Below, piece after piece: positions 1 through 16,376 of a DNA stretch of 16,376 bases (position 1 is its first letter; the number at the start of each line of letters is the position of its first letter). The notes under the pieces are model-generated. The model searched no databases, had not been told where the DNA came from, and worked only from the letters and a program-made list of their open reading frames with translations. A program made the translations under genes and the position numbers. The stretch covers positions 1 to 16,376 of the forward strand of contig CBFGJZ010000033.1 in NCBI GenBank assembly GCA_965649215.1, written 5' to 3'. Source of the stretch: a candidate division WOR-3 bacterium (lineage in GTDB: Bacteria > Hydrothermota > Tepidihabitantia > Tepidihabitantales > CAIPLT01).

Positions 1-3000
1 GTATATCTTAATTGACCACTGCTATTCACAATCGAACAGACCACGGGAAAATTCACCTGAGTCAAGGCACCATAGTTTTTCACTAAAGCCGATGGAATCA
101 TCTCGGTATTCGGCCAATGATTTGCCGCAGGACTTAATATTGCTTCAACACCAACATCATTATTCGGTGGCGGTAGAACCGCAAAACCAATACCCGTCAC
201 ATCATCAAGATACCAACCATCATACACAATTGAACCATCTGAACCAAAATGCCACCTCAATCTAAACTGTTGACCCGAAAGGACGGGGAGATTATTAAAG
301 ACCGCTTCAACCCAACCATTACTAGAACCACCATAAACCGGTTGACCACCAACACCTTGAGTACTTGTCGAAGCAGTGCCAGTATAACCACTAACTGGTG
401 TAATCACATTCCAAGTCTGCCCTTGATTAGTCGAAATCTTAACATTACCACCATCATAAAGTGTCGAAGTACCTTCAAAATTATACCAATGCCAGAACTT
501 AAGAGTCGGATTATCTGTGGTTGCAGTTAAAACCGGCGAAGTTAAAGTCCAGTTGGCACTGTTAGCATAACTGCCAGTTAACACAGTTGCCCAGAGTTTT
601 GTTCCAGAATGTGCATTACCAGGACCAGAAGTCGGTGTACCCCATTCCCAACCACCTGCGGTTGGTGAAGGTTCATAATTACCATTATTGGCTTCAAACT
701 CCTCTAAATAGATTTCAACCGGTAATGAGAAGTAAAATGTATCTACATAATATCCGCTGGTCACGATTAATCTAAACTGAGCCATTGTTCCGGCGACGAT
801 TGAACTGTCTGCATAAATTACATAAGGATCAGCATTATTATTGGCAGTACTATTGGGAATGATGGTTGGAAAGTTACCACTGCCATCAATTATTTGAATG
901 CCTGGAGTTGTTGTGGTTAGAATGGAAGTTGTATTCTCGGCGTTATCGCTGCCAATATTTCTAAGTGTTGCAATTAAATTGACAGTTTCACCACGATTGA
1001 TAATACCATTATTATTCCCCATAATATCATTGACCACAGTGCTGACATGTTCTAAAACACATTGAGCAACCCTTGCTGATACATTAGATACCCAAGTCGA
1101 ATCCGTTGCATCTTTAATGGTTAGAGTAAATCTTAATGTGTAATTATTAGTACAGCTACTTGCAACTGTAAAATTAAAGCCATCTGAAGTGTAAACTGAA
1201 TCATTAGCGGCAATATTACCTAAATTTTTAAATGAATCAGTAATAGTAATATTGGCATCAGTAGTTCGTAACCATACCCGCACATTATTAGCAGTGCTCG
1301 AACCAAAATTCTTAAACCATGCTTTCATTTCCACTGCTTCACCCGGATTGATAAGTCCATTATTATTACCACCCGGTGGTGGATCAAAAATTTGATTTCG
1401 TAGGTGCATCACATAAGCGCCACTTGTTGCTAATGCCATTGTGCCACCAAGATGTGGAGCTAAATTATGTCCAGTGACTGTGATATACACACTATCTGGT
1501 GCGATTGTTGTCAATGACAAGGAAACTTGTCCATTAATATCTGTATACGCCATTGCCCTTCGCGAAGTATCATTTTTAACCATCGCACAAACTAACGCAT
1601 TACGAACTGGCATTCCATTTTTTAAAACACTAACAGGAATATTATAATAACCAAGAGGAATGACCGATGGATAATTGACTGTAATTGCAGCAGGAATATC
1701 TGAATAAACATCAACAGCACCATCACCCATCATATTATACATCTCGAAATAACGACGAGTCGTCCCCGTATTACCCATTTGGGCAAAATAACGGATTTTG
1801 GCTTTATTTAACATTCCCATCGCCCAGACATAATTTGAATCAAATGCATAATCAAAAACTCTTCTCTGTAAAGTATCGTCTTCTACCCAATAAGATGATA
1901 CAGATGAAGCATAATTAGCAATTGCTCCACGATAGCCAGCTCGTATCCAACTTTCGGAAAGACATACTTGTGAGTAAGTATAATTACCACATAAACATGC
2001 ATAAGTCCCAACTAATGGCACTTTGTCAACATTATTAAGAGCATAAACACTTGAAGTTGGATAACTAATTCCTGGATCTGCCCAACCTGTTTCGCTGCCA
2101 TGACCAGAAAAAGTGACCCAAGCTCGTCCTTCATTTACACGATTCGTAACCATTGTTGCAGCACCAGTCTGATAGTAGGTAAAAATTGAATCCGCAATCA
2201 TACCATAACTACGGACTTTTGCCATACAATACCGATGAGTTCCTTCAGCTACTTGATGATAAGTACCATCTGCGGATGCAATAAATAAAGCTTTCTTAGT
2301 CCACTCAGTTCCGCTGATCCATTCATTCTTTTCATATTTAATAGTCTTCCAGATTAAACTATCTAATTGCGCAGCATTAGCAATTGATGCCCTTGATAGG
2401 TCAAGATCTGGCCAATAATCTGATCCTGCTAATGTTGAATAATTCAAATCGGTTGGTGGATTACCCGATCCTGAGCCTGTAAAATAACCAATTTTATCAA
2501 TATCCCCAACTAACAGAACAAATGTTGGTGGAATGGGCCAAGTAGTATAAGCATTTAAAATGTAATTTCTTACCGTAGTATTTGTTCCGCCACCCACTTG
2601 ACTTAATGGTGCGACCGTAACATGATAACCCTTACGAGTCCGCCAGTTAACCAAAGGAGCAACATTACTTACCCATTCATCCGGCACAATAATCAAATAA
2701 CCAACCGGTAGATCCGGAGGTGGGGTTAACGCGTAAGCATCATAATTTTTGACTAAATTAGAAAGCATCATTTCATATGGTTTTGAATAATATCGGTTAC
2801 GCATTTCAATGGTCTTACCAATATTAGCACCCGCTAAGTTAAGCTCAATTGTCATTTCTGATGCATATTCAATAGTATTTTGTTTTGGATTATAAGTTAC
2901 TGGATAAATCTCAATTAGAGCAATTCGATGTCCTCGAATCTCTCCAATCATCTCAACTCGGGCGCGCTCTTTCAACAAAAAATCATCATAATTATAAACT

Positions 3001-3377
3001 TCTTTATTCATTGTAAACTCAGGTGGTGGACCCGACTTAGGAATTGAGGGCTGCAATGGTAAAACCGGTGCATAAAGACGAATTCTTTCTGTTTGGAAGA
3101 TATTAACAGCTAAATCTAATGAAGCATCAAATGGAATTTCAACTAATTCTCTAATTACAGGTAATTGCGGCGATCCAATCTCAGTCGAAATGTCAGCATC
3201 AGTAAAATATAACTGACTAAAAGTCTTGCTGTCGGCCTGTTCTTCTTTTATGTTAAGTGGCGGTAGCGATACTGATAAAGTTATTTTGTTTATATTGGAC
3301 TCAATTACCCGAACATTACTATTAGCACTTAATATTGCTAAGGGTAAAAGAATCCCTACTATTAGAAGTTTCTTCAT
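1..3377 (-). CDS. Secreted gingipain-family (peptidase C25) cysteine protease, Kgp-like, multidomain; 3' end lies outside the window (at least 1125 codons)
   Basis: Translated by hand from ATG 3377 (SD GGGAGGAA at 3385-3392). Signal peptide MKKLLIVGILLPLAILSA, then a C25-propeptide-like region (EIGSPQLPVIRELVEIP). Catalytic domain motifs: TDLNYSTLAGSDYWPDLDLSR, FSGHGSETGWADP (His codon 2100-2102), YACLCG (Cys codon 1995-1997), SSYWVEDD, YFEMYNMMGDG. These are followed by an Ig-like domain, two NNNGxINxGE Ig-like modules, a jelly-roll module (GWYLDDV) and an NDVGV..ILSP CARDB-like module. All segments I translated are in one frame with no stop. Confidence 0.93.
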   Translation of the reverse strand, partial: MKKLLIVGILLPLAILSANSNVRVIESNINKITLSVSLPPLNIKEEQADSKTFSQLYFTDADISTEIGSPQLPVIRELVEIPFDASLDLAVNIFQTERIRLYAPVLPLQPSIPKSGPPPEFTMNKEVYNYDDFLLKERARVEMIGEIRGHRIALIEIYPVTYNPKQNTIEYASEMTIELNLAGANIGKTIEMRNRYYSKPYEMMLSNLVKNYDAYALTPPPDLPVGYLIIVPDEWVSNVAPLVNWRTRKGYHVTVAPLSQVGGGTNTTVRNYILNAYTTWPIPPTFVLLVGDIDKIGYFTGSGSGNPPTDLNYSTLAGSDYWPDLDLSRASIANAAQLDSLIWKTIKYEKNEWISGTEWTKKALFIASADGTYHQVAEGTHRYCMAKVRSYGMIADSIFTYYQTGAATMVTNRVNEGRAWVTFSGHGSETGWADPGISYPTSSVYALNNVDKVPLVGTYACLCGNYTYSQVCLSESWIRAGYRGAIANYASSVSSYWVEDDTLQRRVFDYAFDSNYVWAMGMLNKAKIRYFAQMGNTGTTRRYFEMYNMMGDGAVDVYSDIPAAITVNYPSVIPLGYYNIPVSVLKNGMPVRNALVCAMVKNDTSRRAMAYTDINGQVSLSLTTIAPDSVYITVTGHNLAPHLGGTMALATSGAYVMHLRNQIFDPPPGGNNNGLINPGEAVEMKAWFKNFGSSTANNVRVWLRTTDANITITDSFKNLGNIAANDSVYTSDGFNFTVASSCTNNYTLRFTLTIKDATDSTWVSNVSARVAQCVLEHVSTVVNDIMGNNNGIINRGETVNLIATLRNIGSDNAENTTSILTTTTPGIQIIDGSGNFPTIIPNSTANNNADPYVIYADSSIVAGTMAQFRLIVTSGYYVDTFYFSLPVEIYLEEFEANNGNYEPSPTAGGWEWGTPTSGPGNAHSGTKLWATVLTGSYANSANWTLTSPVLTATTDNPTLKFWHWYNFEGTSTLYDGGNVKISTNQGQTWNVITPVSGYTGTASTSTQGVGGQPVYGGSSNGWVEAVFNNLPVLSGQQFRLRWHFGSDGSIVYDGWYLDDVTGIGFAVLPPPNNDVGVEAILSPAANHWPNTEMIPSALVKNYGALTQVNFPVVCSIVNSSGQLRY

Positions 3378-3505
3378 AATAAACTTCCTCCCTTAAGATT
3401 TTTGCCAAAATAAAAACGTCACTAAAAAAAATCGCTTACAAAAAATAAATAAAATTTTTTCACTGGTCATTTCGGCAGGTAATTATAAATATATAACATT
3501 AAAAT

Positions 3506-3534
3506 ATTATATCATTGAAAAGATAAAGAGTCAA
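3506..3534 (-). promoter_or_regulatory. Sigma70-type promoter for the C25 protease gene
   Basis: Minus strand reads TTGACT (3534-3529), 17 bp spacer, TATAAT (3511-3506), with an extended -10 TG (TGaTATAAT). Confidence 0.75.
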
Positions 3535-3612
3535 GCATTTTAACTTACTAATTTTTTCTTTCGCTTATCAATGCAGAACTCAATATACAAAATGTTTTTA
3601 AGATTCAATTCG

Positions 3613-4257
3613 CTACCAATTATATTGAATACCCATTCCCATCCCAATGCCACTAAAAGTTCTTTCTGGATAATAACCGATTTCAAACCAATTATTTTGT
3701 AAATAACCTTCACTAAATTCATGTTTAATAAGATAAAAACTACAGATCTCAATATTCAAAGACAACGCTTTTGATATACGAGTATCAATATTCAGCAATT
3801 TAGTAAAAAATGCAATTGGGAAAAAATCGACTCCTCCACTTATAGTTGGTCCCCAATAATTAGTCTTATATTGCACTGGGTGGATTTCATAAGTCGAATC
3901 AATCTCATTATAATAATTTTCCCAGCGCTTATCACTTTTCCCTTCCAATCCAAAACCAATATATGTTTGATACCAGTTATGATCCCTAAAATGATAATGC
4001 AACCTTAGACCATAATTTATGGTAAAATATGGACGATAAAAAGAATATCTGTAAATCGTAGAAGTATAAGCATTGAATTTATATTTAGCAGAATCAACTT
4101 GTGTTTCACCGCTTCTAAAATTAATTAAAAAATTTGTACGGAAACCTTGATTTTGACCAACTTTCACGCTAATCCCGTCAAATAAAGGATCATGCATAAA
4201 ACCAATAGAACCTGTTTCTAAAAAACTTATTAATAAAATAGAAAATAAAACATTCAT
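3613..4257 (-). CDS. Putative small outer-membrane beta-barrel protein (hypothetical)
   Basis: 214-aa ORF with SD-like AGGA upstream and a hydrophobic N-terminus. Amphipathic strands (NYGLRLHYHF, TYIGFGLEG, GPTISGGVDFFP, LSLNIEI) and a C-terminal beta-signal-like strand ending in an aromatic residue (GMGMGIQYNW). Confidence 0.7.
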   Translation of the reverse strand: MNVLFSILLISFLETGSIGFMHDPLFDGISVKVGQNQGFRTNFLINFRSGETQVDSAKYKFNAYTSTIYRYSFYRPYFTINYGLRLHYHFRDHNWYQTYIGFGLEGKSDKRWENYYNEIDSTYEIHPVQYKTNYWGPTISGGVDFFPIAFFTKLLNIDTRISKALSLNIEICSFYLIKHEFSEGYLQNNWFEIGYYPERTFSGIGMGMGIQYNW

Positions 4258-4303
4258 GTTGCTTCCTGCTTTAATATAAGGTATTGCGATTCCATTCTGA
4301 CGA

Positions 4304-4333
4304 ATTATAGCATACTTATTAACAATATGTCAA
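4304..4333 (-). promoter_or_regulatory. Consensus sigma70 promoter for the 214-aa beta-barrel gene
   Basis: Minus strand TTGACA (4333-4328), 18 bp spacer, TATAAT (4309-4304), with extended -10 (TGcTATAAT). Confidence 0.75.
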
Positions 4334-4357
4334 TATAGTTATATCTTGCGACAAATA

Positions 4358-4385
4358 TTGACAATCCAATAAAATATTGTAAAAT
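4358..4385 (+). promoter_or_regulatory. Sigma70-type promoter for the lipoprotein-TBDR-CTD protein-PorV operon
   Basis: TTGACA (4358-4363), 16 bp spacer, TAAAAT (4380-4385); SD AGGAGG at 4452-4457 before ATG 4462. Confidence 0.6.
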
Positions 4386-4461
4386 TGTAATGCTGTATGG
4401 TTATTTATAAACAAGCCACGCACTTTCAAAATGTACATTCTAATTTTGGCAAGGAGGCCAA

Positions 4462-5574
4462 ATGATACATAATAACAAAAAAACGATTGTTAATAGTGTT
4501 TTGCTTTTAACAATCGTATTAACCGCATTTATTATCGGCTGCGGAACTATGCCCCCTGAAGAATATTGGACCTGGACAGCTCAAGATTCTACTCAAATAC
4601 ATCAAATCGTTAATCAATATCGACCTTACTTTACAATCCAATTTGAAAAGAACGACTCTTTTTATCCTGTTAATTATATTGCAGACACTGTTGCTCGAAA
4701 TATTCGTCTTGCAGTACGGACTCTTTGGACTAAACCCCATTATTGGCCAGGTGGTATCACTCGTACTTACCAATCGACTATTATTGACAGTTTTATTCCT
4801 GTCAAAGATACAACCGTAACAGTGAAGATTCGCGAAGTCGTGAGCGGTGTCTTAAAAATCAAAGCTGAATCCAGTACCGTGAGGTTAGGTGATACAACAA
4901 TCGGTGACCAAGTTTATCCCTTATACTCTCGCAGTTTTGTCAAAGCCAATGCACCTTATCAATTTATCCGCAAGATTACTGATTCGATTGTTGGTAATGA
5001 TACTTTCTTTCATTATGATACCATAACGGGTGTCAATACAGATACTTTAATCGAAAATCCATACGAAGGTTTTTGTGAACGATTTATGCATTTTGAATAT
5101 GACGATGTTAATAAAACTTGGTATCTAAGTAAGATTACCGGTGGAACTCGTATTTTTATTCCCAATTACAATGATGCACCATATCTACAATTGTGTAGTT
5201 TAGCCACTCGTAACAAAGCCTATGGCATTTGGGAACGTCCTGATACTACCACTGTTCGCAGATACGGGATCCAACGCTTTTATGAACTCGATTCTATTGT
5301 CACTTTTGCTCCTGGTGAAACCTTATTTGTCCGCGCCACTAATTTTATTCCCCCCCTCTCGTTAGGATTTATTCATTATAATCAAAAACGCACCGACTTA
5401 ACAATCACCACAACCGCAACGACACCACGCACAACACTACCATATCCATTAGAAGATCCTAATCAAACAACTTGGCAACAAGTTTATTTAGAGTTTACGC
5501 CTTGGGAAGCGGTCTGTCGTCGTGGTAATTATAATGCTTTAATATGGGTATTACCCATCAGAGTAAAACCTTAA
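4462..5574 (+). CDS. Uncharacterised lipoprotein, beta-rich, first gene of the TBDR operon
   Basis: 370 aa with AGGAGG SD. Basic N-region, hydrophobic stretch and lipobox-like IIG|C at Cys27. Thr/Ile/Val/Tyr-rich; no SusD/TPR-like helical pattern recognised. Confidence 0.85.
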   Translation: MIHNNKKTIVNSVLLLTIVLTAFIIGCGTMPPEEYWTWTAQDSTQIHQIVNQYRPYFTIQFEKNDSFYPVNYIADTVARNIRLAVRTLWTKPHYWPGGITRTYQSTIIDSFIPVKDTTVTVKIREVVSGVLKIKAESSTVRLGDTTIGDQVYPLYSRSFVKANAPYQFIRKITDSIVGNDTFFHYDTITGVNTDTLIENPYEGFCERFMHFEYDDVNKTWYLSKITGGTRIFIPNYNDAPYLQLCSLATRNKAYGIWERPDTTTVRRYGIQRFYELDSIVTFAPGETLFVRATNFIPPLSLGFIHYNQKRTDLTITTTATTPRTTLPYPLEDPNQTTWQQVYLEFTPWEAVCRRGNYNALIWVLPIRVKP

Positions 5575-5591
5575 TAAGCAGGAGAGCAACT

Positions 5592-8411
5592 ATGAAAAAT
5601 ATAAATAAATATTATTGGGCAGTAATTTTATTAACTGCCTGCTTTTTACTCTTACCGATCCATCTCTTTGCTGGTGAAACAGGCCGTATTATTGGACGCA
5701 TTATCGACGCTGATACTCGAGAACCATTAGCGGGTGTCAATGTTATTGTTGAAGGCACTGAACTTGGTGCTGCAACTGATGCTGACGGCCGTTATTTAAT
5801 TACCAATGTTCCACCCCGTCGCGTTAATGTTACTGCATCTTATATCGGTTATGAACCTCAAACTTACAAAGATGTTTTAGTTATCGTTGACCAGACTGTT
5901 ACTGTGGACTTTCGTTTAAAAGCTACTATTATTGAAATTGACAAACCAGTGATTATTCAAGCCGAAAGAGATATGGTCATTCGTACCGCAGTTGCGACAA
6001 CCCGCACTGCCTCCGCAGAAGAATTCAATCGTTTGCCAGTCACAGCATTAACTCAATTAGTTGGTTTACAAGCCGGTATTCGTCAAGATGATCGTCGTGG
6101 TTGGACTCATATTCGTGGCGGTCGTTTTGATGATGTTTCTTATCTCATTGATGGTGTTGCAGCACGAGACGCTTTAGTTGGTACTTTGTGGTCAAGCCCA
6201 AAACCAACCACAGAAGCAATTCAAGAAGTGATTGTCATTACCGGGAGTTTTGACCCTGAATATGGTGAAGCAATGTCTGGGATTGTTCAAGCTATTACCA
6301 AAGAAGGTGGCAGCAAAACTCAAACCCGAATTCGTTATACAACTGATGCTATGTTTCCTCGTAAAGACTATAATTATGGTTATAATAATGTTCAATGGAC
6401 TATTGGTGGCCCAATTCCCTTATATGATCGCTTAAGATATTTTATTTCCTCTCAATATTTCAAGACCAAAGCATCAAGTGAAGCACTATATTATGTGCCA
6501 TCCCCACGCTATGAATATGCAGTCGAAGGTAAACTTACCTTCAATGTTCCAAAAAGTTTTCCGTTAACTCAACAAGGCTTAAAACTCACGGTTGATGGTC
6601 ATCATTCTAATTATCAATGGCAAGGATATAGTCAAGACTGGAAATATTTCTTAAAAGGAATTTTTGCAAACCGAGTTCGCTCATATAAAGCTAATTTCCA
6701 TCTCAATCATATGATAACTGATAAAGTGGTCTGGACCTTAAAGACCGGTTATTTTAGTACTGCGCTTCTCCGTGACCCTCGCAATTTTGACCGCGAAGCA
6801 GCTGATACAAGTGGTATTAGTGGCTTTCTCCGACGAACCGGCATTTGGGAAAACTTCATCTTTATGGGAGAAGACTGGGTATTTAATAACCCTGAAAGCC
6901 TTGATACAAAAACTGCCCTCTTAAATATGTATCGTGCTCCAAATATTATTTACTATAATAATAATGATTTACGAATGGCTATGCTTAATCCTTATGGAAC
7001 TTATGAGGGAATTTTCTATACTTCATCACCCACCTATTTCCATTATCGTACCACGCAAAGTAAATTTGTCAAAGGTGACATTTCTTGGACCCCAAATAAA
7101 ACCCATGAAGTCAAAACCGGTATTGACTTAACCCAATATACTTTAGCTGAACATACCAACCAAATGCCAGATGACCCCAATCCCTTCTGGGAATATTTCA
7201 AAGTCCATCCGGTCACTTTTGCTGCTTTTATTCAAGACCGCGCTGACTTTGAAGATTTAGTGATTCGTGGCGGATTGCGATTTGACTATCTTGACGCTAA
7301 AGTGAAAAAACGATTATATCCGGAAAGCATTGGTGGCCGTGAAGAAATTCGCGATTCGCTGGTCCCTGTCAAAGTAAAGATGCGTATCTCACCACGTCTT
7401 GGTATTTCCTTCCCACTAACCGAACGCATCAAGTTCCGTTTCTCTTATGGTCACTTCTTTAAAAATCCAACATTCGGTGATCTATTTAGTTGCGTTGAAT
7501 TTACCAGTATGGATATCTCACGTCGTCCTAATACAATAGTTGGTAACCCTGATATGGCAGCAGAAAAGACCATTGCATATGAAATGGGTTTTGATGCTCA
7601 ACTTACTGATATCTTTGCATTTGACTTAACTACCTATTATAAGGATATTTATGATCTCTCCGGGACAAGAACTGTTCGTGCGATTCCATCTTATAGCATG
7701 TATTACAATGTTGAATATGCTCGTGTGATGGGTGCTGAAGCAACCTTTACCAAACAATTAAGCAATTATTGGCGAGCGTCAGCTTCTTATACTTATCAAA
7801 TTGCTAAAGGCACAGCTTCTACTGCTACTGCAGAATATTCCCGCGGTTATGCCTTACAGATTGATTATCCATTAGATCATGATATGCGTCATAGTGCCAG
7901 TTTAGATTTTGCTTTGGCTTTCCCCTCTGACTTTATCTTTATACCCATCCGAGATTTTGAAGCATCTATGATTGCCCGTTTTAATACTGGATTACCTTAT
8001 ACTCCGACTGATGCCCGCGGCAATCGTGTTGCTGATGAAAATTCGGCTCGGATGCCTTCCACATTTTCAATTGATTCCCGTTTGAATAAATCCATCAAAA
8101 TAAATAATCTTGCCATAAACTTATATTGTGATATTTTCAATCTCCTCAATAATAAAATTGTCGTGACAGTTTTTGGTGCGACCGGTACTCCTGATGATCG
8201 TGGTCAACGGATTGTTGAAGGTCAATTCTCATCGGGTTTAAGAATTGGTGATGCCTATTATCACCCAGCACGAGACTTTAATCATGATGGTTATTTAACT
8301 CAACGGGAAATGTATGATTCTTATATGGCTGCCTACAAAGATCGCTATTCAATTCCTACTTATTATGGTGCATCTCGAAAGATCCGGTTTGGAATCAGTT
8401 TAGGAATTTAG
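5592..8411 (+). CDS. TonB-dependent outer-membrane receptor with N-terminal carboxypeptidase-regulatory-like domain (939 aa)
   Basis: Start moved from 5544 to ATG 5592 (SD AGGAG at 5580-5584; signal peptide ending LFA|GETG). CarboxypepD_reg-like GRIIGRIIDADTREPLAGVNVIVEGTELGAATDADGRYLITNVPP; TonB-box region PVIIQAER; plug HIRGGRFDDVSYLIDGV and ITGSFDPEYGEAMSGIV; barrel motifs GGLRFDY, ISPRLGISFP, FRFSYGHFF, GNPDMAAEKTIAYEMG, IFNLLN; terminal strand RKIRFGISLGI. Confidence 0.95.
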   Translation: MKNINKYYWAVILLTACFLLLPIHLFAGETGRIIGRIIDADTREPLAGVNVIVEGTELGAATDADGRYLITNVPPRRVNVTASYIGYEPQTYKDVLVIVDQTVTVDFRLKATIIEIDKPVIIQAERDMVIRTAVATTRTASAEEFNRLPVTALTQLVGLQAGIRQDDRRGWTHIRGGRFDDVSYLIDGVAARDALVGTLWSSPKPTTEAIQEVIVITGSFDPEYGEAMSGIVQAITKEGGSKTQTRIRYTTDAMFPRKDYNYGYNNVQWTIGGPIPLYDRLRYFISSQYFKTKASSEALYYVPSPRYEYAVEGKLTFNVPKSFPLTQQGLKLTVDGHHSNYQWQGYSQDWKYFLKGIFANRVRSYKANFHLNHMITDKVVWTLKTGYFSTALLRDPRNFDREAADTSGISGFLRRTGIWENFIFMGEDWVFNNPESLDTKTALLNMYRAPNIIYYNNNDLRMAMLNPYGTYEGIFYTSSPTYFHYRTTQSKFVKGDISWTPNKTHEVKTGIDLTQYTLAEHTNQMPDDPNPFWEYFKVHPVTFAAFIQDRADFEDLVIRGGLRFDYLDAKVKKRLYPESIGGREEIRDSLVPVKVKMRISPRLGISFPLTERIKFRFSYGHFFKNPTFGDLFSCVEFTSMDISRRPNTIVGNPDMAAEKTIAYEMGFDAQLTDIFAFDLTTYYKDIYDLSGTRTVRAIPSYSMYYNVEYARVMGAEATFTKQLSNYWRASASYTYQIAKGTASTATAEYSRGYALQIDYPLDHDMRHSASLDFALAFPSDFIFIPIRDFEASMIARFNTGLPYTPTDARGNRVADENSARMPSTFSIDSRLNKSIKINNLAINLYCDIFNLLNNKIVVTVFGATGTPDDRGQRIVEGQFSSGLRIGDAYYHPARDFNHDGYLTQREMYDSYMAAYKDRYSIPTYYGASRKIRFGISLGI

Positions 8412-8420
8412 GAGGAAATA

Positions 8421-11261
8421 ATGAATCATAATAACAAAGTAAACATAAAGCAATTAATCTTAATCATAACTATCATCTTTGGGCTGTTTGCTATTAGTTC
8501 ACTAGAAGCAATGTCAAAGACTAAACCTCCACGTACCGGTCGTATTCGGGATAAGAAATATCTTGATATTAACCGATGGCGTTGTCCATTTTACAATGAA
8601 GGTCGTTATGCTTATGACGAAGCAACCGGTGAAGGTGGTGGTTTTTGGCCTTATCCCTTACGCAACCAGTATATCTTTGGCGCTGGTCCGTGGGTTGGCG
8701 CAATCACTCATAATAACGATACTTTAGTTACTTGTGGTTACAATCCCAATACTGCTCAAGGTGAATTCTTCCCAGCCCCATATGGTGAAGGAAGTACGGG
8801 AAATGCGATGGATCGCATTTATAAAGCACCTTATGATTGGCCACCACCTCAATCCCGTTTTGGTTATGATACAACTTTAGTACCACAAAAGATATTCTCT
8901 TTGCAAGATATGTGGTGTGTTTATTCTGATTCGCATCCTGATTATCATGTTGCACCGGGCAAACCGATTGGTATCGAAGTCTATCAAACTATTTACGCTT
9001 GGAACTATCCGACTAATCAAGATATTTTCTTCATCACTTATAAAGTTAGAAATGCAACTGCTGATACTATTAAGAATATGATACTTGGTGCTTGTATGGA
9101 CCCGGATATTGGTGAATCTGGTTACCATGTACTTGAAGAAGGTGATATGGTCGGCTTAATCAAAGAAGCCTTTATTGGTGGTGATACGGTGCGAGATGTT
9201 GGTTATGTTGGTGACTATAACAATATTGAATCTTCATATTGGCAATCGGGTACACCAGGTGTTGTTGCCTATAAGTTCTTAGAAGGTGCTCGGGATGAAC
9301 AGACCGGTGCTCCGTTAGGGATGACCTCATTTAAGAAGTTTACGATTGATATTGACCCGCCCACTGATGTTGCTCAATATTTAACAATGGCCGGTTATGA
9401 TTATCGTACTGGTATTTATAATCCCTATGACTCCATTGATGAACAACCGATGGATAAAAGATTTATCACCTGTACTGGTCCTTTTAATCTTCCGCCTGGC
9501 AGTGTCGCTACGATTTTAGTTGCTTGTCTTGCGGCTCCTTATGGTGGTCCTGGTCAACTTTGGCATCTGCGTGACACCAATGACTTAAAACCATTAGTAA
9601 AATTAGCTGTCACTGCTCAATATATTTATGACCAAGGTTGGCTCTTACCCGGACCGCCAGCAGCTTCAAATGCAGTGCTTTACCCAATGGATAAAGCAAT
9701 TCGCATCGTTTGGGACGATTTAGCAGAACGAACACCTGACCCTTATTATGAAGTAACTTCCAATCCAGCCAGTCCTGGTTATGATCCTTATTATAAACAA
9801 TACGACTTTGAAGGATATAAAATCTATAAATCTTCTGATGGAATTAACTGGACATTACTAACCCAATGTGACCTTAATAATGGCATTCGTTTCAAACTTC
9901 GCAACGATACGATGTTTTATAATGATACAATTCAAGAGACAGGTGTTACAACACGAGCGACTGATCGCGGTCTTTTCTACAGTTATCTTGATAAAGATGT
10001 TATTAACGGCTTTCCTTATTATTATAAAGTTGCCAGTTATGACTTTAATTTTACTAAAACCAGTGACACGACCCGTGATACTTTAATTTTTGAATCTAAT
10101 CCTCAACCAGTTTCCGCCCGGCCTCGTTGGGAAGCACCAAACTATTCAAATCCCTGGGTGAAAATTGACCGCATTATCGGTAATGACATCTCACCGGGAT
10201 TAAAATGTAGCACTTCCATAGTATTACCATACTTAATACCTCAAGATACTTTGACTATTAAATTTGCCGGTCCTGTTTATACTGGTGTTTCTAATCGTGC
10301 TTTATATCGCTACATTGTAGTTGATAAGAATAACAATCTTATCCAAGACACAGTTCGTTTTTATTACACTTTAGGTGCAGCTCGTAATCAGAATTTACCA
10401 CCGTTGAAAGGTACTGAATTGATTGCTAAAATGTCAATCACTTTACCGAGCCGAACTTATGACTCAATCTATCCGATAAGTGGTTCGTATCCCGCTGATC
10501 GTCTTGGTCCAAGAGTAATTTCTGTGCCTTTTGGTCAATGGGCATATCGTGGTTCGGATTATAAAATCGTTTGGCAAATCTGTGGCAATGTCAAAACCTG
10601 CCGTGTTTACGATGTGACGAACGGTGAAGTCGAAGTACCAAAAACACGCTTTCAAACCACTCCACCTTGGTATGATTCATTAGCCAACGGTTGGTGTTTT
10701 GTTGACCGAGTCTTCCGTAATCCCACAGATACTTTAAAGACTGGCTCTGCATATATCTACATAAATTTTGGGTATCTTGCTTTGAATCGTATTAGCGCTA
10801 CTCAATTTGACACGATTGGCGCTTTATACAATCAGATTAATGATGGCGATATTTGGTATGTCAAAGCTACTGAAGGTTCAATCTCAGCTCCATATTATAA
10901 CCAATTCATCTATTATGGCACGCCTGCCATTGCTCGTTCTGACACTACCTATAAACTAAATGTTAAAGTGGTACCTAATCCTTATCTCATTACAAACCGC
11001 TGGGAAATTAGCAAATTTGAACGCCGAATCGCTTTCACCAATCTACCTGCTAAATGCAAAATCCGTATCTACACTGTTGCTGGAAACTTAGTAAAGATTA
11101 TTGAACACAAAGATACGGACACAAATCCGATGGATAAAGGTGGCACTGAATATTGGGACTTACTTAATGAACATGACCAATTAGTTGCCTCTGGCGTTTA
11201 CATCTTCCATATCGAATCTGATATTGGCGAACAAGTTGGAAAATTTGCAGTTATCTTATAA
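8421..11261 (+). CDS. Large secreted protein with an Fn3-like domain and a T9SS-type C-terminal sorting-like domain (function unknown)
   Basis: 946 aa; SD AGGAGG overlaps the upstream TAG; signal peptide present. Fn3-like segment GPPAASNAVLYPMDKAIRIVWDD...DFEGYKIYKS...NGFPYYYKVASYD (about 9651-10125). C-terminal VKVVPNPY...FTNLPAKCKIRIYTVAGNLVKII...WDLLNEHDQLVASGVYIFHIESDIGEQVGKFAVIL (10962-11261) carries the PNP, GxY and KxxVx hallmarks of T9SS CTDs. Confidence 0.85.
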   Translation: MNHNNKVNIKQLILIITIIFGLFAISSLEAMSKTKPPRTGRIRDKKYLDINRWRCPFYNEGRYAYDEATGEGGGFWPYPLRNQYIFGAGPWVGAITHNNDTLVTCGYNPNTAQGEFFPAPYGEGSTGNAMDRIYKAPYDWPPPQSRFGYDTTLVPQKIFSLQDMWCVYSDSHPDYHVAPGKPIGIEVYQTIYAWNYPTNQDIFFITYKVRNATADTIKNMILGACMDPDIGESGYHVLEEGDMVGLIKEAFIGGDTVRDVGYVGDYNNIESSYWQSGTPGVVAYKFLEGARDEQTGAPLGMTSFKKFTIDIDPPTDVAQYLTMAGYDYRTGIYNPYDSIDEQPMDKRFITCTGPFNLPPGSVATILVACLAAPYGGPGQLWHLRDTNDLKPLVKLAVTAQYIYDQGWLLPGPPAASNAVLYPMDKAIRIVWDDLAERTPDPYYEVTSNPASPGYDPYYKQYDFEGYKIYKSSDGINWTLLTQCDLNNGIRFKLRNDTMFYNDTIQETGVTTRATDRGLFYSYLDKDVINGFPYYYKVASYDFNFTKTSDTTRDTLIFESNPQPVSARPRWEAPNYSNPWVKIDRIIGNDISPGLKCSTSIVLPYLIPQDTLTIKFAGPVYTGVSNRALYRYIVVDKNNNLIQDTVRFYYTLGAARNQNLPPLKGTELIAKMSITLPSRTYDSIYPISGSYPADRLGPRVISVPFGQWAYRGSDYKIVWQICGNVKTCRVYDVTNGEVEVPKTRFQTTPPWYDSLANGWCFVDRVFRNPTDTLKTGSAYIYINFGYLALNRISATQFDTIGALYNQINDGDIWYVKATEGSISAPYYNQFIYYGTPAIARSDTTYKLNVKVVPNPYLITNRWEISKFERRIAFTNLPAKCKIRIYTVAGNLVKIIEHKDTDTNPMDKGGTEYWDLLNEHDQLVASGVYIFHIESDIGEQVGKFAVIL

Positions 11262-11271
11262 GGAGATAAAT

Positions 11272-12312
11272 ATGGCTAAGAAAATTAAATATATCTTATT
11301 AATTTTACCCTTAATTGCTTTAACTATGCACGGTGATATTAAGTTTTCTAAAGTTGGTACTACCTCGGCACAATTCTTAAAAATTGGCGTTGGTCGTGCC
11401 ACCGGCATGGGTGAAGCGTTTGGTGCGATTGCCAATGATGCATCAGCAACTTATTTCAATCCTGCGGGACTTGCTCAATTGACCAAGAAAGAAGCATTTA
11501 TCAGTCATATTGACTGGATTTCTGACCTAAATCATGATTATGTATCTTTAGCATTGCCATTGAGTCAAATTGGTGTTTTAGGATTTTCGGTTTCTGCACT
11601 CACTATGGGTAAAATTCATCGCCTGACAATTGATGACCCTGGCACTTTAATTCGGGAAGATGACTCCACAGGTCTTTATTACAATGCTATGGATATGGCG
11701 TTTACTATCTCTTATGCTCGTCAGATTACCGACAAATTGGCTTTCGGATTTTCAGGTAAAGCAATCACTTCAACAATTTGGAATCTCTCAGCCAGTGGGG
11801 CTGCACTTGATTTAGGTTTACTCTATCATACTGGTTTTAAGAGCTTACGGATTGGCGCGGCGGTTACCAATTTTGGTTCTTCTATGGCTTACACTGGTTT
11901 AGCAGTTGAATTTCAAGACACATCATATCAGATTAAACCTCGTGCCCGTTATGTCACAACCGCTAATCCTCTCCCGACAACATTCCGCTTTGGTATTGCT
12001 TATGACCTAATTGATATGCCTGATAACACTTTAACATTTGCTTTAGATGTCTTACATCCAAATGACATTAATGAAACTGTGAACTTTGGCTTTGAATATA
12101 TCTTTCGTAAGATCTTCTTTTTACGCAGCGGTTATATCCTAAATACCGACTTAAAATACTCAGAAGCGATGAAATATCAAACTGGTTTATCTGCGGGTGC
12201 TGGTTTTATGACTGACTTAACACCGGGTGTTACTTTGCGAATTGACTATTGTTATCGTGATATGGGCTTTTTAAAAGCATCGCATCGTTTAGGCGCAATT
12301 GTCGGCTTCTAA
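11272..12312 (+). CDS. PorV/PorQ-family (FadL-like) outer-membrane beta-barrel, 346 aa
   Basis: Start moved from 11185 to ATG 11272 (SD AAGGAG overlaps the upstream TAA). Hallmark KVGTTSAQFLKIGVGRATGMGEAFGAIANDASATYFNPAGLA, plus DLGLLY, LPTTFRFGIAY, LRSGY, IDYCY and a terminal Phe (HRLGAIVGF). Confidence 0.92.
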   Translation: MAKKIKYILLILPLIALTMHGDIKFSKVGTTSAQFLKIGVGRATGMGEAFGAIANDASATYFNPAGLAQLTKKEAFISHIDWISDLNHDYVSLALPLSQIGVLGFSVSALTMGKIHRLTIDDPGTLIREDDSTGLYYNAMDMAFTISYARQITDKLAFGFSGKAITSTIWNLSASGAALDLGLLYHTGFKSLRIGAAVTNFGSSMAYTGLAVEFQDTSYQIKPRARYVTTANPLPTTFRFGIAYDLIDMPDNTLTFALDVLHPNDINETVNFGFEYIFRKIFFLRSGYILNTDLKYSEAMKYQTGLSAGAGFMTDLTPGVTLRIDYCYRDMGFLKASHRLGAIVGF

Positions 12313-12331
12313 TAAGTTATAAAAATCAAAC

Positions 12332-12372
12332 GGGGCATAGTTTAGAAACTTAAGCTATGCCCCTTATCTTTT
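12332..12372 (+). terminator. Intrinsic terminator closing the TBDR-PorV operon
   Basis: 13-bp stem GGGGCATAGTTTA / TAAGCTATGCCCC (one G-U pair), 6-nt loop, followed by TTATCTTTT; 19 nt after the PorV stop. Confidence 0.8.
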
Positions 12373-12373
12373 A

Positions 12374-14542
12374 ATGTGTAAGCACAATCTCGTCAGATTC
12401 AGCATCTTTGCACTCTTAACCTTACCAAGTTTGTTGTTCGCTTTAAATTGGACGGTAATGGTTTATATGTGTGCTGACAACTCGCTGCAAGACCAAAGTT
12501 ATATCGATTTGCAAGAGATGATGCAAGCAAATTCATCAGATCAAGTCAAAATTATTGTTCAAGTTGACAATCTTGCCTCTTCGCTTACTCCCAACTGTCA
12601 ACGCTATCTCATCTCGCATCAGAATCAAGAACTGATTGCGGATCTTGGCGAAGTTGATATGGCTGATCCCCACACTTTAATTGATTTTGTCCGCTTCAGT
12701 AAAAATCGATTTCCTGCGCAAAACTATCTCTTAATTCTTTGGGATCATGGCAATGGTTGGCCAATTGGCACATATCAGACTTATCAAAACAAAGCCATTA
12801 TCTATGACCAGTCATCCCAGAACTGGTTAGGTGTGGCTGATGGTGAATTAAAATATGCGGTCAGTGAGATAAAGAAAATCTTGGGTAAAAAGATTTCTCT
12901 GCTTCTCTTTGATGCCTGTTTAATGGCGATGGCTGAAGTTGCGGATGAACTTACTGAAGGAGTTGAGTATATGCTTGGTGCTCAAGACCAAAATCCGATT
13001 GATGGTCTGTGTTATGACCAAGTTTTATCCTATCTTGCTCACAATCCTAATGTTCAACCCCGTACTTTAAGTGAACAAATTATTAACCTCTGGACTGCTT
13101 CCTATAATCATGGTACGCAGGGTTTTCAACCGGTCGCATTTTCGGCATTAAACTTAAATCAATTTCAAAAAGCCCGTGAAAACTTTAATTCGGTTCTTAA
13201 TATCTTATCTCAAAATATCTCTCTGCTTCAATCAGCACGACTGCAAGTACAGACATTTAGCATTGAACATTTACCACCCAATCAACAAGATGACTATATT
13301 GACCTGCTTCACTTCTTAAGTTTAATCAATCAGCAGTTATCCAATCCTACGCTTACGAAAAATATTAAACAATTTTCTGATGCGGTGATTCGTTGTCAAT
13401 CAGTTGGCGATTACTTACGCAATGCATCGGGCATCTCAATCTGGTTTGCGGATAACTATCTTGCATTTAAATACAATATCAATGAATATCGTAATTTAAC
13501 TTGGGCAAAAAACACTGATTGGCTTCGGTTACTCAACAACTATTTTAACCTTGATGACATAAGGCCAACTCCAACTATAATTTCTCTATCGCCTGTTGGC
13601 AAGCATAATGATTTTTATTTGAGTTATCCTCGAAGTTTTGATTTGGCAGATGTTAACTATAACATCTATGAAACCCAAGCAATAACCCAAATCTTTTTTG
13701 ATTCGTGTCATAACTTTAACAATTGGCAGAGCAATGGCTTTGTTTTAGATAGCAGTAATTATCATTCTCCAGCGTACTCATTCTATTCTAATCAGGGTAA
13801 TAATCTTACACACACGCTTTGCTTGTTAAACCCAATTGCGCTTCCGGCTGGTGGTCTCCTCTCATTTCACTCTTATTATGAAACCGAAGAAAGTTATACT
13901 CCTTCTGCCACAATCAAGCGCGATATTTGCTATCTTGAGCAATCGTCCAATAATATTGACTGGTATGTCATTGATTCGTTTTATGGTCAAAGCAAAACAT
14001 GGCAAGAACATCGTTATCTCTTAACACCGCAAGATAATTTATATTTACGTTTTCGCTATCAGACCGATGCCACACTCAGCCGACTCGGGGTCTATTTAGA
14101 CGATATCACAATTTTGGCATTCACTAACACTCGTTTACTGGCTAGTCATTATCCCGACACTTGTTTTTATATTTATAACCTTGCATATGGCAGTTATCAT
14201 TATTTTATAATACCCCAAGATGCTTTTGGAAATGTCGGTTTTTGTAGTCCGTTTCAATCTCTGACGATTAACAATTACTGCGAACCCCATACTCGGCCAT
14301 CACCATTTTATACTGATTGTTATATCTATTGTGACTATCCTGACCCTCATCCTTTAAACTTATCAATTTATACGCTCAATGGTGAGTTAATTCGCAGTTT
14401 TGATGCTTCGGCATTTACCGATAAGAAAGTTTACTGGGATGGTTGTAATCTTAAAGGACAATCTGTTGCAAGTGGTCTTTATCTATTGGTCTTAAAAACA
14501 CCAAGTTTAACACGCATTGGTAAGATCGCCAAAGTAAGATAA
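12374..14542 (+). CDS. Secreted clostripain-family (peptidase C11) cysteine protease with split Fn3, jelly-roll module and C-terminal FlgD/T9SS-like domain
   Basis: 722 aa with signal peptide. WTVMVYMCADNSL, VKIIVQVD, GEVDMADPHTLIDFV, FPAQNYLLILWDHGNGW (His codon 12746-12748), LLFDACLMAMAEV (Cys codon 12917-12919). C-terminal PSPF...IYTLNGELIR...WDGCNLKGQSVASGLYLLVLK...KIAKVR. Confidence 0.93.
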   Translation: MCKHNLVRFSIFALLTLPSLLFALNWTVMVYMCADNSLQDQSYIDLQEMMQANSSDQVKIIVQVDNLASSLTPNCQRYLISHQNQELIADLGEVDMADPHTLIDFVRFSKNRFPAQNYLLILWDHGNGWPIGTYQTYQNKAIIYDQSSQNWLGVADGELKYAVSEIKKILGKKISLLLFDACLMAMAEVADELTEGVEYMLGAQDQNPIDGLCYDQVLSYLAHNPNVQPRTLSEQIINLWTASYNHGTQGFQPVAFSALNLNQFQKARENFNSVLNILSQNISLLQSARLQVQTFSIEHLPPNQQDDYIDLLHFLSLINQQLSNPTLTKNIKQFSDAVIRCQSVGDYLRNASGISIWFADNYLAFKYNINEYRNLTWAKNTDWLRLLNNYFNLDDIRPTPTIISLSPVGKHNDFYLSYPRSFDLADVNYNIYETQAITQIFFDSCHNFNNWQSNGFVLDSSNYHSPAYSFYSNQGNNLTHTLCLLNPIALPAGGLLSFHSYYETEESYTPSATIKRDICYLEQSSNNIDWYVIDSFYGQSKTWQEHRYLLTPQDNLYLRFRYQTDATLSRLGVYLDDITILAFTNTRLLASHYPDTCFYIYNLAYGSYHYFIIPQDAFGNVGFCSPFQSLTINNYCEPHTRPSPFYTDCYIYCDYPDPHPLNLSIYTLNGELIRSFDASAFTDKKVYWDGCNLKGQSVASGLYLLVLKTPSLTRIGKIAKVR

Positions 14543-14775: not shown

Positions 14776-15420
14776 TCATTTACTATACTTATCTAACCAT
14801 TTAACTGCTTTAAATAAATCCTTAGCAGTGCCGATTGAGTGTTCACCGGCAGTAATTATCAGGGTATCTTTAATACCATGCTTATAGAACTGTTCGTGTA
14901 AAGAATAATTATGGGATAAGTTCCAATCTTTATTGCGGGTTACTAAATAGACTAATTTGCCTTTTAATGTCTGCCATTTGGCTAATGAGAGCGCGCCGCT
15001 ATGCGCGCATTCGCTAATGAGACCCCGAAAAAGGGTTGGTCTGAGAAACATACTCATCATTGCCTGCACACCTTGACCCGAAAACCCATAAATAAATACC
15101 CGAGTTGAATCAATCGGATAGGATTTGATTGCTTTATGATAGGTCTTAATAATATCTTGATGATTAAGCATTACATCGCGATGGTTCCGACTCTTTTGAC
15201 ACGAAAAAATAATCCAGTTCAGACTATCGGCAATAAAAGTAATTGAATCTAAATCAGCTTTTTTCGCACCCGTGCAACTCAAATACATTAAAGCTGGCAC
15301 TCGCTTACCCATTTCTAAAACTTTTTGGGGAATATAAAAACAATCCGAATCATTATCACATATCACATTTTTACCAAACAGGAAACTTACGCAGACTACC
15401 GACAACAATATAATTCTCAT
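14776..15420 (-). CDS. Secreted alpha/beta-hydrolase (esterase-like)
   Basis: 214 aa with signal peptide. YPIDSTRVFIYGFSGQG nucleophile elbow, RPTLFRGLI strand, candidate Asp in TRNKDWN and candidate His in TAGEHSIG. Confidence 0.8.
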   Translation of the reverse strand: MRIILLSVVCVSFLFGKNVICDNDSDCFYIPQKVLEMGKRVPALMYLSCTGAKKADLDSITFIADSLNWIIFSCQKSRNHRDVMLNHQDIIKTYHKAIKSYPIDSTRVFIYGFSGQGVQAMMSMFLRPTLFRGLISECAHSGALSLAKWQTLKGKLVYLVTRNKDWNLSHNYSLHEQFYKHGIKDTLIITAGEHSIGTAKDLFKAVKWLDKYSK

Positions 15421-15588: not shown

Positions 15589-16376
15589 ATGACAAGATAT
15601 GTAAAACTAATCTTGTTGATAATGTTTATGGGTGTATCATTACTCCAATCAGAAGAATTATCTTACAAGTCCAAAGACCCAAATCCATATTTTGTCATAA
15701 AGGCTTATGATAAATATGGTTATATTGATAATAATGGTAAACTTGTGATCGGCCTGCGATTCGATGATGCTTGGTGTTTTTCCGAAGGTCTGGCGGCTGT
15801 ATTAGTTGGCGACAAATGGGGTTATATTGATAAGACCGGCAAGATTGTGATTTCTCCGCAATTCAATTGGGTTGATGATTTTTCTGAAGGTCTGGCGTGT
15901 GTAAAAATTAGCGGCAAATATGGTTATATTGATAAGACCGGTAAATATGTTATTGAGCCGCAATTCGATGGCAATGGGAATTTTTCCGAAGGACTGGCAA
16001 GAGTGACAATTGGCAAAAAATATGGTTATATTGATAAGACCGGTAAGGTTGTTATCAATCCGCAATTTGATGCAGCGGGTAGTTTTTGTGAAGGTCTGGC
16101 TGTTGTAAGAATTGGTGATGATAAGAAATATAAAGAGGGTTATATTGATAAGAGTGGCCAGTATGTTATTAAGCCACAATTTGCCGATGCGGGGAATTTT
16201 TCCGAAGGGTTGGCTTATGTAAAAATTGGCAATAAATATGGTTATATTGACAAGACCGGTGAGATTGTTATAAAGCCAAAATTTGATGATGCTTGGGATT
16301 TTTCTGACGGACTGGCAAGAGTAAAAATTGGCAAAAAATATGGTTATATTGATAAAACGGGTAAGGTTGTTATCAA
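15589..16376 (+). CDS. WG-repeat (KWG / WG_beta_rep-type) secreted protein, 3' end outside the window
   Basis: Translated by hand from ATG 15589 (SD GGAGG at 15580-15584). Signal peptide MTRYVKLILLIMFMGVSLLQS, then repeats of FSEGLAxVxIGxKYGYIDKTGKxVIxPQFDxAxx, open to the window end. Confidence 0.95.
   Translation, partial: MTRYVKLILLIMFMGVSLLQSEELSYKSKDPNPYFVIKAYDKYGYIDNNGKLVIGLRFDDAWCFSEGLAAVLVGDKWGYIDKTGKIVISPQFNWVDDFSEGLACVKISGKYGYIDKTGKYVIEPQFDGNGNFSEGLARVTIGKKYGYIDKTGKVVINPQFDAAGSFCEGLAVVRIGDDKKYKEGYIDKSGQYVIKPQFADAGNFSEGLAYVKIGNKYGYIDKTGEIVIKPKFDDAWDFSDGLARVKIGKKYGYIDKTGKVVI
15712..16376 (+). repeat. Intragenic tandem repeat with a 102-bp (34-aa) period, 7 GYID cores visible
   Basis: GGTTATATTGA begins at 15718, 15820, 15922, 16024, 16138, 16240 and 16342 (spacings 102, 102, 102, 114, 102, 102). 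Confidence 0.92.

Follow-up and report, generated by a model that had tools for sequence, protein, structure and literature searches.

A conserved outer-membrane gene block of a candidate division WOR-3 bacterium that may join a protein with a type IX-like C-terminal domain and its neighbouring PorV/PorQ-family barrel to a TonB-dependent receptor

What does a TonB-dependent receptor (TBDR) share with a secreted protein whose C-terminal domain (CTD) resembles type IX secretion system (T9SS) CTDs, as well as with a PorV/PorQ-family barrel encoded right behind that protein? The question is raised by a stretch of 16,376 nucleotides from a candidate division WOR-3 bacterium (contig CBFGJZ010000033.1 of assembly GCA_965649215.1), which was analysed as a whole and is called the window here. 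Its list of open reading frames (ORFs) contains nine sizeable ORFs, and four co-oriented genes on the forward strand span positions 4462-12312 in the order lipoprotein, TBDR, a 946-amino-acid (aa) protein that we refer to as mid946, and PorV/PorQ-family barrel. A gene for a C11 protease follows. We read the block as a conserved outer-membrane acquisition module in which the CTD protein is kept on its cognate barrel, the C11 protease trims and the TBDR imports, and we put the probability of this reading at about one in two. The elements on which the argument draws are the following.

4358-4385, forward strand: sigma-70-like promoter candidate (TTGACA, 16 nt, TAAAAT) with 11 of 12 consensus matches, 77 nt 5' of the lipoprotein start.
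4462-5574, forward strand: 370-aa lipoprotein with signal peptide, lipobox IIGC and then a conserved stretch CG(R/T)MPP.
5592-8411, forward strand: TBDR with signal peptide, CarboxypepD_reg domain, candidate TonB box, plug and barrel.
8421-11261, forward strand: mid946, a 946-aa secreted protein with signal peptide, novel N-domain, beta-rich middle and T9SS-like CTD.
8523-9635, forward strand: N-domain of mid946, residues 35-405, mean pairwise identity 0.62.
9636-10934, forward strand: middle part of mid946 (residues 406-838), Fn3-like by eye over its first stretch and beta-rich and less conserved after it.
10935-11258, forward strand: CTD of mid946, residues 839-946, divergent and T9SS type-A-like, with a mean pairwise identity of 0.64 the most conserved region of the protein.
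11269-12312, forward strand: 347-aa outer-membrane barrel of the PorV/PorQ-family 14-strand type, a distinct subfamily.
12332-12363 (element listed to 12373), forward strand: intrinsic-terminator hairpin of 14 bp with a T-run, between the barrel and C11 genes.
12374-14542, forward strand: C11 cysteine protease of 722 aa, from the clostripain family (PF03415, 157.8 bits), which also has a MAM-like domain and a CTD.

The raw ORF calls, all on the forward strand, placed the lipoprotein at 4462-5574, the TBDR at 5544-8411, mid946 at 8421-11261 and the barrel at 11185-12312. From the junction sequence the TBDR start was moved to the ATG at 5592, which has AGGAG 8 nt upstream and comes after the lipoprotein stop at 5574, and the barrel start to the ATG at 11269, past the mid946 stop at 11261. 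The stop codon TAG of the TBDR sits within the AGGAGG ahead of the ATG of mid946 at 8421, and the stop codon TAA of mid946 overlaps the AAGGAG ahead of the barrel ATG. The terminator hairpin folds at -22.1 kcal/mol (z -5.6), and none of 200 shuffles folded as well. The promoter scan is weak evidence when taken alone, as its 96 sites compare with 61.8 expected by chance composition and the consensus may not be that of the host lineage.

Related loci were collected by one scan of species-representative genomes with mid946, which gave 10 loci (L001-L010) from uncultured metagenome-assembled genomes, and their ORFs were compared with the window proteins by BLASTP. The 10 mid946 homologues have 35-61% identity to the window protein. 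A TBDR (37-72% identity) lies immediately 5' of the mid946 homologue in all 10 loci and a PorV-family barrel (45-68%) immediately 3' of it in eight of eight; the contigs of L003 and L009 stop before the barrel position and were left out of the latter count. All seven loci that reach far enough have a lipoprotein homologue 5' of the TBDR (20-40% identity). The barrel is followed by a C11 protease in seven of the eight loci, at 38-51% identity; the exception is L010, where the genes after the barrel encode an LVIVD-repeat protein, whose CTD is truly of type A (31.0 bits), and another CTD protein. Intergenic gaps are about 10 nt or the ORFs overlap, and in L004, L005 and L008 the C11 ORF overlaps the end of the barrel ORF. 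L001 has a similar hairpin between its barrel and C11 genes, at the same place as in the window. The flanking genes vary from locus to locus and the G+C content ranges from 37 to 64%; therefore, the cassette itself is the conserved unit.

Outer-membrane genes often cluster, and the block could in principle be a chance juxtaposition of unrelated ones. Since all 10 related loci repeat the gene order for as long as their contigs run, the arrangement goes beyond chance, and with unrelated flanks, coding regions that abut or overlap and the same order over that range of G+C content we hold mere juxtaposition to be almost negligible as an explanation. For the nine taxa that have all three genes, the TBDR, mid946 and barrel trees built with FastTree have three supported splits in common: L001 and L002 group with the window, L010 joins these three, and {L004, L005, L007, L008} form a group. 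The Robinson-Foulds distance between trees is 4-6 of a maximum of 12, with conflicts only in weakly supported shallow nodes. The trees show that the genes were inherited as one block; they are not proof of co-evolution. A tblastn search of plasmids with the N-domain of mid946 gave no match.

A preliminary description of this DNA had depicted four abutting genes under one promoter and one terminator, which proved accurate: the ORFs, the junctions, the promoter-like site and the hairpin agree. It had also asked for a survey of gene order and for a comparison of the three phylogenies, and both came out in its favour, with TBDR and mid946 adjacent in 10 of 10 loci, the barrel in place in eight of eight, and the well-supported deep splits common to all three trees. 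Its interpretation is borne out in part, the role of mid946 as a substrate-binding lid or partner of the TBDR being conjectural. We amend the description in one respect. Because a C11 protease with a CTD comes after the barrel in seven of eight loci, the protease gene past the terminator is a conserved fifth member, and the unit is really one of five genes.

The first element of the proposed module is the tail of mid946. Over about 108 residues it matches only the CTD parts of the PorZ (35.1 bits) and PorU (21.3 bits) models, plus the type A model TIGR04183, where it scores 18.6 bits and stays below the cut-off of 23. None of the 10 mid946 tails reaches that cut-off (14.2-19.9 bits, E values of 5e-4 to 3e-2), and the CTD part of PorZ is the top match for nine of the 10, with 18-37 bits. 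Por_Secre_tail (PF18962) was not found by Pfam in mid946 or its homologues, and no type B CTD model was listed at E<=0.1 for the mid946 tails. Together, the TIGR04183 E values and the PorZ and PorU tail matches show a relationship to type A CTDs that lies below the cut-off. Mid946 as a whole is not PorZ (NF052228), as it scores 30.6 bits against a required 260 and covers only profile positions 668-742 of 757. For comparison, the tails of the C11 proteases reach 18.0-23.6 bits on TIGR04183, and three of seven attain the cut-off. On these scores the mid946 tail is a divergent CTD, but just modestly more so than that of the protease.

On TIGR04183, three further cargo proteins encoded in the L004 and L010 flanks reach 31-36 bits, above the cut-off. 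These flanks (L004:1-5879 and 16278-19494; L010:14137-18504) hold secreted proteins with true type A tails, namely Kelch-repeat proteins, an LVIVD-repeat protein and a 604-aa unknown, so these genomes use standard T9SS-type tails too. No T9SS core gene was seen in the window or in the scanned flanks of the loci.

The second element is the barrel. It scores 204.3 bits on the PorV/PorQ family model NF033709 (cut-off 90), and seven of seven scanned module homologues score 188.8-203.0. A profile of the module barrels matches Flavobacterium johnsoniae PorV (6h3i_F) with an E value of 5.8e-8. The narrower equivalog models are failed throughout: PorV (NF033710) gives 68.4 bits for the window against 250 and 51.8-73.7 bits in eight of eight barrels, although this model was built on Bacteroidota and another phylum's housekeeping PorV might fail it too; PorQ (NF033711) gives 84.1 against 220 (range 74.7-103.7); and PorV2 (NF052325) gives 87.2 against 325 (range 79.1-99.1).

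For a model of the complex, residues 22-347 of the barrel and residues 835-946 of mid946 were used, with separate alignments and three controls. The pair scored 0.90 and the best control 0.01; in calibration, a mark of 0.90 was reached by 58 of 80 solved complexes and by two of 110 mismatched pairs. At least 84% of contacts are common to the runs, the pLDDT (predicted local distance difference test) of the partner, the CTD, is at least 74 (74-75), and the invariant G940-K941 of mid946 fall in the modelled interface between CTD and barrel. Type A CTDs are C-terminal beta-sandwiches of seven strands that bind PorV loops. Since solved complexes of SprA, PorV and substrate exist (8gl6 and others), such a pass shows likeness to the known mode of PorV-CTD binding.

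The PorV family also leaves room for another function. PorV is itself a FadL homologue according to PMC12578637, and the window barrel weakly matches the Toluene_X/FadL model (17.9 bits, E 0.0012) as well as UPF0164 (33.1 bits), so that it could be a channel for hydrophobic molecules instead of a CTD anchor, and the block a system for uptake of lipids or other hydrophobic substrates. With 204 bits on the PorV/PorQ model against 18 for FadL, a CTD-barrel model at 0.90 against 0.01 and CTD proteins invariably adjacent, we regard such a channel as highly improbable.

The preliminary description took the barrel for a dedicated PorV paralogue, a view that would not hold if it were the genome's only PorV and a clear orthologue of the housekeeping one. 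In at least one of the relatives, L007, another PorV-family barrel (115.9 bits) is encoded 8.5 kb away and beside other CTD proteins, and the proposal to model the cargo CTD on PorV led to the placement described above. What stands of that view is a PorV/PorQ member that fails the PorV, PorQ and PorV2 equivalogs and may have either of the flanking CTD proteins as its client. This second locus (L007:2143-5708), which lies just upstream of the module and repeats its pairing of CTD protein and barrel, encodes in turn a protein of 252 aa whose tail is CHU_C/FlgD_ig-like, a PorV-family barrel of 463 aa and, on the opposite strand, a 462-aa paralogue of mid946. The tail of the 252-aa protein is weakly CTD-like (Pfam CHU_C 29.3 bits against 27; PorU-tail part 20.1 bits), and the 463-aa barrel bears a C-terminal CarboxypepD_reg-like extension and is convergent with the paralogue, which combines N-domain and CTD.

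The part of mid946 that the barrel would hold outside the cell belongs to no known family. No Pfam family was found at E<=0.09 in any of the 10 homologues, and profile searches of PDB sequences with mid946, its N-domain and its middle gave nothing significant. The L007 paralogue (4320-5708, reverse strand, 462 aa) has an N-domain with 44% identity to mid946 residues 42-389 and a CTD that matches residues 871-945, and no more; as just these two parts are kept, the N-domain is an autonomous module, presumably displayed. Within the middle, residues 406-572, Fn3-like by eye, have a mean pairwise identity of 0.58, and residues 573-838 of 0.43. The Fn3 assignment is unconfirmed, with Pfam fn3 absent and no significant match from the PDB profile search.

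An AlphaFold2 model of full-length mid946 from a 10-row alignment was unusable (mean pLDDT 40.8, predicted template modelling score, pTM, 0.28). The N-domain modelled separately from 11 rows reached a pLDDT of 57.6 and a pTM of 0.69, and Foldseek matched it to PDB entries at low template-modelling scores only (TMq 0.22-0.38, root-mean-square deviation 9-22 Å). These matches were to beta-supersandwich N-domains of GH94, GH116, GH149 and GH161 enzymes, glycoside phosphorylases or hydrolases, and to aldose 1-epimerase. The model is a lead, short of a fold assignment, to a large beta-sandwich that is perhaps carbohydrate-binding, and the many invariant Asp, Trp and Tyr residues of mid946 would fit binding of sugar or calcium. 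In the most distant homologue (L010:10058-11254) the N-domain has an insertion rich in stretches of the D-x-D-x-D-G type, which by eye resembles calcium-binding thrombospondin-type repeats.

In the ESM Atlas, the clusters nearest to whole mid946 are unnamed or carry the name 'T9SS type A sorting domain' (score 0.98), and the N-domain had no usable match among the named clusters. The few cluster taxa that are known are WOR-3 and Zixibacteria; this fits the mention, in the preliminary description, of similar gene trios in genomes associated with the Fibrobacteres-Chlorobi-Bacteroidetes (FCB) group, as a lead that is unverified by alignment.

The third element is the TBDR. It matches the 22-strand barrel domain PF00593 with 103.8 bits (cut-off 27), CarboxypepD_reg (PF13620) with 69.6 bits and Plug (PF07715) with 23.0 bits, slightly below the cut-off of 23.9, and a profile search aligned residues 126-274 with the colicin I receptor 2hdf, in its plug region (E 1.3e-8). 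There is also a partial match to PF25183 (38.9 bits, cut-off 30). A stretch (V/I)x(V/I)xAx(R/K), read by eye before the plug in eight of eight TBDR sequences, is a candidate TonB box. In L010, one of the seven loci that extend upstream of the lipoprotein gene, genes for ExbB, ExbD, ExbD and TonB lie immediately 5' of that gene; the upstream ORFs were scanned in six of the seven, L009 being left out. The TBDR is not of the SusC/RagA type, as it scores 68.1 bits on TIGR04056 against 368.25 and is covered only in its N-terminal residues 50-186. Pfam found no SusD-family match among the nine window proteins, but since the TBDR is not SusC/RagA-type this absence is expected and carries no weight, which makes the 'SusD-independent' contrast of the preliminary description uninformative.

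TBDRs with such an N-domain raise the question of direction. In Myxococcus, the TonB-dependent transporter Oar is required for secretion of the protease PopC, as PMC6434023 puts it. Like the module TBDR, Oar is a receptor with a CarboxypepD_reg N-domain that is associated with a protease. An Oar-like TBDR could export mid946, C11 or both, with the PorV-family barrel as receiver, and the block would then be a self-contained module for secretion and anchoring and no importer. The CarboxypepD_reg N-domain, the partial PF25183 match, the protease gene as a conserved neighbour in seven of eight loci and the TonB-ExbBD genes that adjoin the module in L010 would suit this. Still, the module cargo, unlike that of Oar, bears CTDs of the T9SS type, for which SprA/Sov is the known conduit, and nearly all TBDRs serve import; the likeness to Oar is a putative one of domain layout. 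Export by the TBDR seems to us quite unlikely. A bolder form, which we consider very unlikely, would make the block a minimal relative of the T9SS carrier step outside Bacteroidota, working without the SprA translocon, with an Oar-like TBDR as conduit or extraction motor and the barrel keeping CTD proteins at the surface.

The lipoprotein and the protease complete the block. The lipoprotein has no family in Pfam or NCBIfam and no PDB profile match, and hhalign found no relation to mid946 (probability 0.7%). Its lipobox Cys27 is invariant in all eight aligned homologues. The His (WDHG) and Cys (FDAC) motifs of the C11 protease are invariant in seven of seven sequences, and we take them to hold the catalytic residues.

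If these elements act together as an acquisition module, mid946 would cross the outer membrane by a T9SS-type route, and the barrel of the next gene would capture its CTD and retain it, as PorQ does with PorZ, PorV with PorU and SprF with SprB. A CTD so kept would leave the N-domain and the beta-rich stalk standing on the cell surface next to the importer. There mid946 would capture a polymeric substrate (glycan, glycoprotein or protein), the C11 protease would trim it, and the TBDR, energised by TonB-ExbBD, would import the fragments, with the lipoprotein as a presumed accessory of the TBDR. The distribution of conservation supports this, since the CTD is the most conserved region of mid946 (0.64 against 0.43 in residues 573-838). 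So do the contrast with the ordinary cargo tails of L004 and L010, which pass the TIGR04183 cut-off that all 10 mid946 tails miss, the paralogue beside a second barrel in L007 and the TonB genes next to the module in L010.

Several points weigh against the acquisition module. Firstly, the CTD of mid946 differs little from that of the protease, with 14-20 bits on TIGR04183 for mid946 against 18-24 bits for C11, and on the same seven genomes the CTD identities of 0.65 and 0.52, respectively, form a contrast too small to decide retention. Secondly, the pass of the complex model may stem from likeness to solved PorV-CTD structures and is not proof that this pair binds, specifically or otherwise. 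Because CTD proteins flank the barrel on both sides (C11, or the LVIVD-repeat protein in L010), its client could be either or both, and a strong terminator parts C11 from the other four genes in the window and in L001. The 10 relatives were all found by close similarity, so that the conservation could be that of one lineage. The substrate is a guess, since the fold models of the N-domain are of low confidence (pLDDT 40.8 for the full protein and 57.6 for the N-domain, TMq <=0.38). Lastly, the link between surface protein and TBDR may be physical or functional only, and physical contact is the least supported step.

The same observations would suit an ordinary cargo with a local shuttle. The barrel would then be a PorV-type carrier for the flanking CTD proteins (mid946, C11 or the LVIVD-repeat protein), which would be cleaved and released or linked to a surface glycolipid as other type A cargo is, and the TBDR and lipoprotein would only import products, with no standing complex. 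PorV is a shuttle in Bacteroidota, as described in PMC10994853; CTD proteins stand on both sides of the barrel in eight of eight loci, mid946 and C11 have CTDs that score much alike on the models, and the terminator before C11 suggests separate dosage instead of a complex of fixed stoichiometry. Against a mere shuttle, the mid946 CTD is conserved to the same degree as the functional N-domain (0.64 against 0.62), and what it matches best are the PorZ and PorU tails, which belong to the two proteins whose CTDs are known to be retained. Moreover, mid946 and the barrel are adjacent in every one of the eight loci, and the barrel fails the PorV equivalog (51.8-73.7 against 250 bits). The local shuttle is a tentative alternative that we judge unlikely, though well within reach.

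To place the acquisition module among known systems, it is easiest to start from the importer. As in SusC/SusD (RagA/RagB), an importer with N-terminal CarboxypepD_reg is encoded next to surface partner proteins, and RagAB works with gingipain proteases on peptides. Unlike there, the module TBDR is not SusC/RagA-type, no window protein is SusD-like, and the putative partner would be displayed by CTD and barrel and not by a lipid anchor. TbpB-TbpA and HpuA-HpuB of Neisseria are bipartite receptors with the lipoprotein gene directly 5' of the TBDR gene in one operon. The order of lipoprotein and TBDR in the module is alike; no sequence similarity was found.

Closer precedents exist for the barrel. 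According to PMC10202324, PorZ stays bound to PorQ and PorU to PorV by an uncleaved CTD, and protection of CTDs has been proposed as a general role of cognate PorV-like barrels; CTDs bind extracellular loops of PorV according to PMC10994853. Here too a PorV-family barrel is proposed, from the tail matches and the complex model, to hold a secreted protein by an uncleaved CTD. The differences are that the module barrel fails the PorQ and PorV equivalogs, that mid946 matches PorZ in its tail only (positions 672-743 of 757), and that a TBDR and a lipoprotein share the operon of the pair. In PMC9143113, type B CTD proteins are said to associate with PorP-like barrels, and the SprF/PorP-like barrels resemble the module in that a cognate carrier or anchor barrel is encoded beside its own CTD protein, as with type B adhesins such as SprB (PMC9143113, PMC10202324). 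Unlike SprB, the module CTD resembles type A and PorZ/PorU tails, the barrel belongs to the PorV/PorQ family, and there is no link to gliding.

A further parallel is BamG-BamH of the Bacteroidota BAM complex, for which PMC12578637 describes a 14-strand FadL-like barrel that binds the extracellular BamH by its loops and packs against another barrel, BamA; such barrels can therefore bridge a surface protein to a neighbouring barrel. The BamG model was matched at 19-20 bits against 250, in two of eight PorV-family barrels scanned (the seven module barrels and the L007 paralogue), and no BamA occurs here.

With PorQ-PorZ, PorV-PorU and the PorP-like precedents described, the idea of a dedicated anchor is already known. 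The new element is the operon link of a pair of CTD protein and cognate barrel to a TBDR and a lipoprotein. Other phyla of the FCB group may have T9SS components (PMC11285876), a paper on Cloacimonadota (PMC8542988) has no occurrence of PorV or TonB, and the literature searched, paper supplements not covered, gave no description of a cluster of TBDR, CTD protein and PorV. If mid946 is indeed held on its own barrel beside the TBDR, lineages outside Bacteroidota would build the extracellular half of an importer through type IX sorting and not from surface lipoproteins. This would join T9SS cargo handling and TonB-dependent uptake, fields usually treated apart, and PorQ-PorZ and SprF-SprB would no longer be the limits of the rule that a CTD stays on its cognate barrel. 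Two sizeable conserved families, that of the mid946 N-domain and that of the lipoprotein, are also defined by the block and have no relative in Pfam, NCBIfam or PDB, and the block is a concrete operon to look for in uncultured polymer degraders.

The remaining genes of the window lie outside the conserved block. At 3-3377 on the reverse strand, 1.1 kb from the module, a large peptidase of the C25 (gingipain) family has a propeptide, a catalytic domain and a MAM-like domain, and its C-terminus is cut by the window edge. It is transcribed divergently from the module and scores far below the cut-offs of PorU, the usual gene neighbour of PorV (44.9 bits against 420), and of PorU2 (75.8 against 450), and no counterpart was found beside the module in the 10 related loci. 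The 214-aa ORF at 3613-4257 (reverse strand) is hydrophobic at its N-terminus, ends in an aromatic residue and could encode an outer-membrane barrel of small size; neither Pfam nor NCBIfam assigns it to a family, and the related loci do not conserve it. On its strand a promoter-like site with 12 of 12 matches lies at 4333-4304. On the other side of the block, 14776-15420 (reverse strand) encodes a 214-aa alpha/beta-hydrolase-like protein with a weak Peptidase_S9 match at the cut-off, and 15589-16374 (forward strand) a secreted protein of WG-containing repeats (279 bits over six stretches). In L009, an ORF of 1899 aa (3166-8865, reverse strand) runs antisense to the TBDR and lipoprotein genes at 64% G+C and is almost certainly a compositional artefact.

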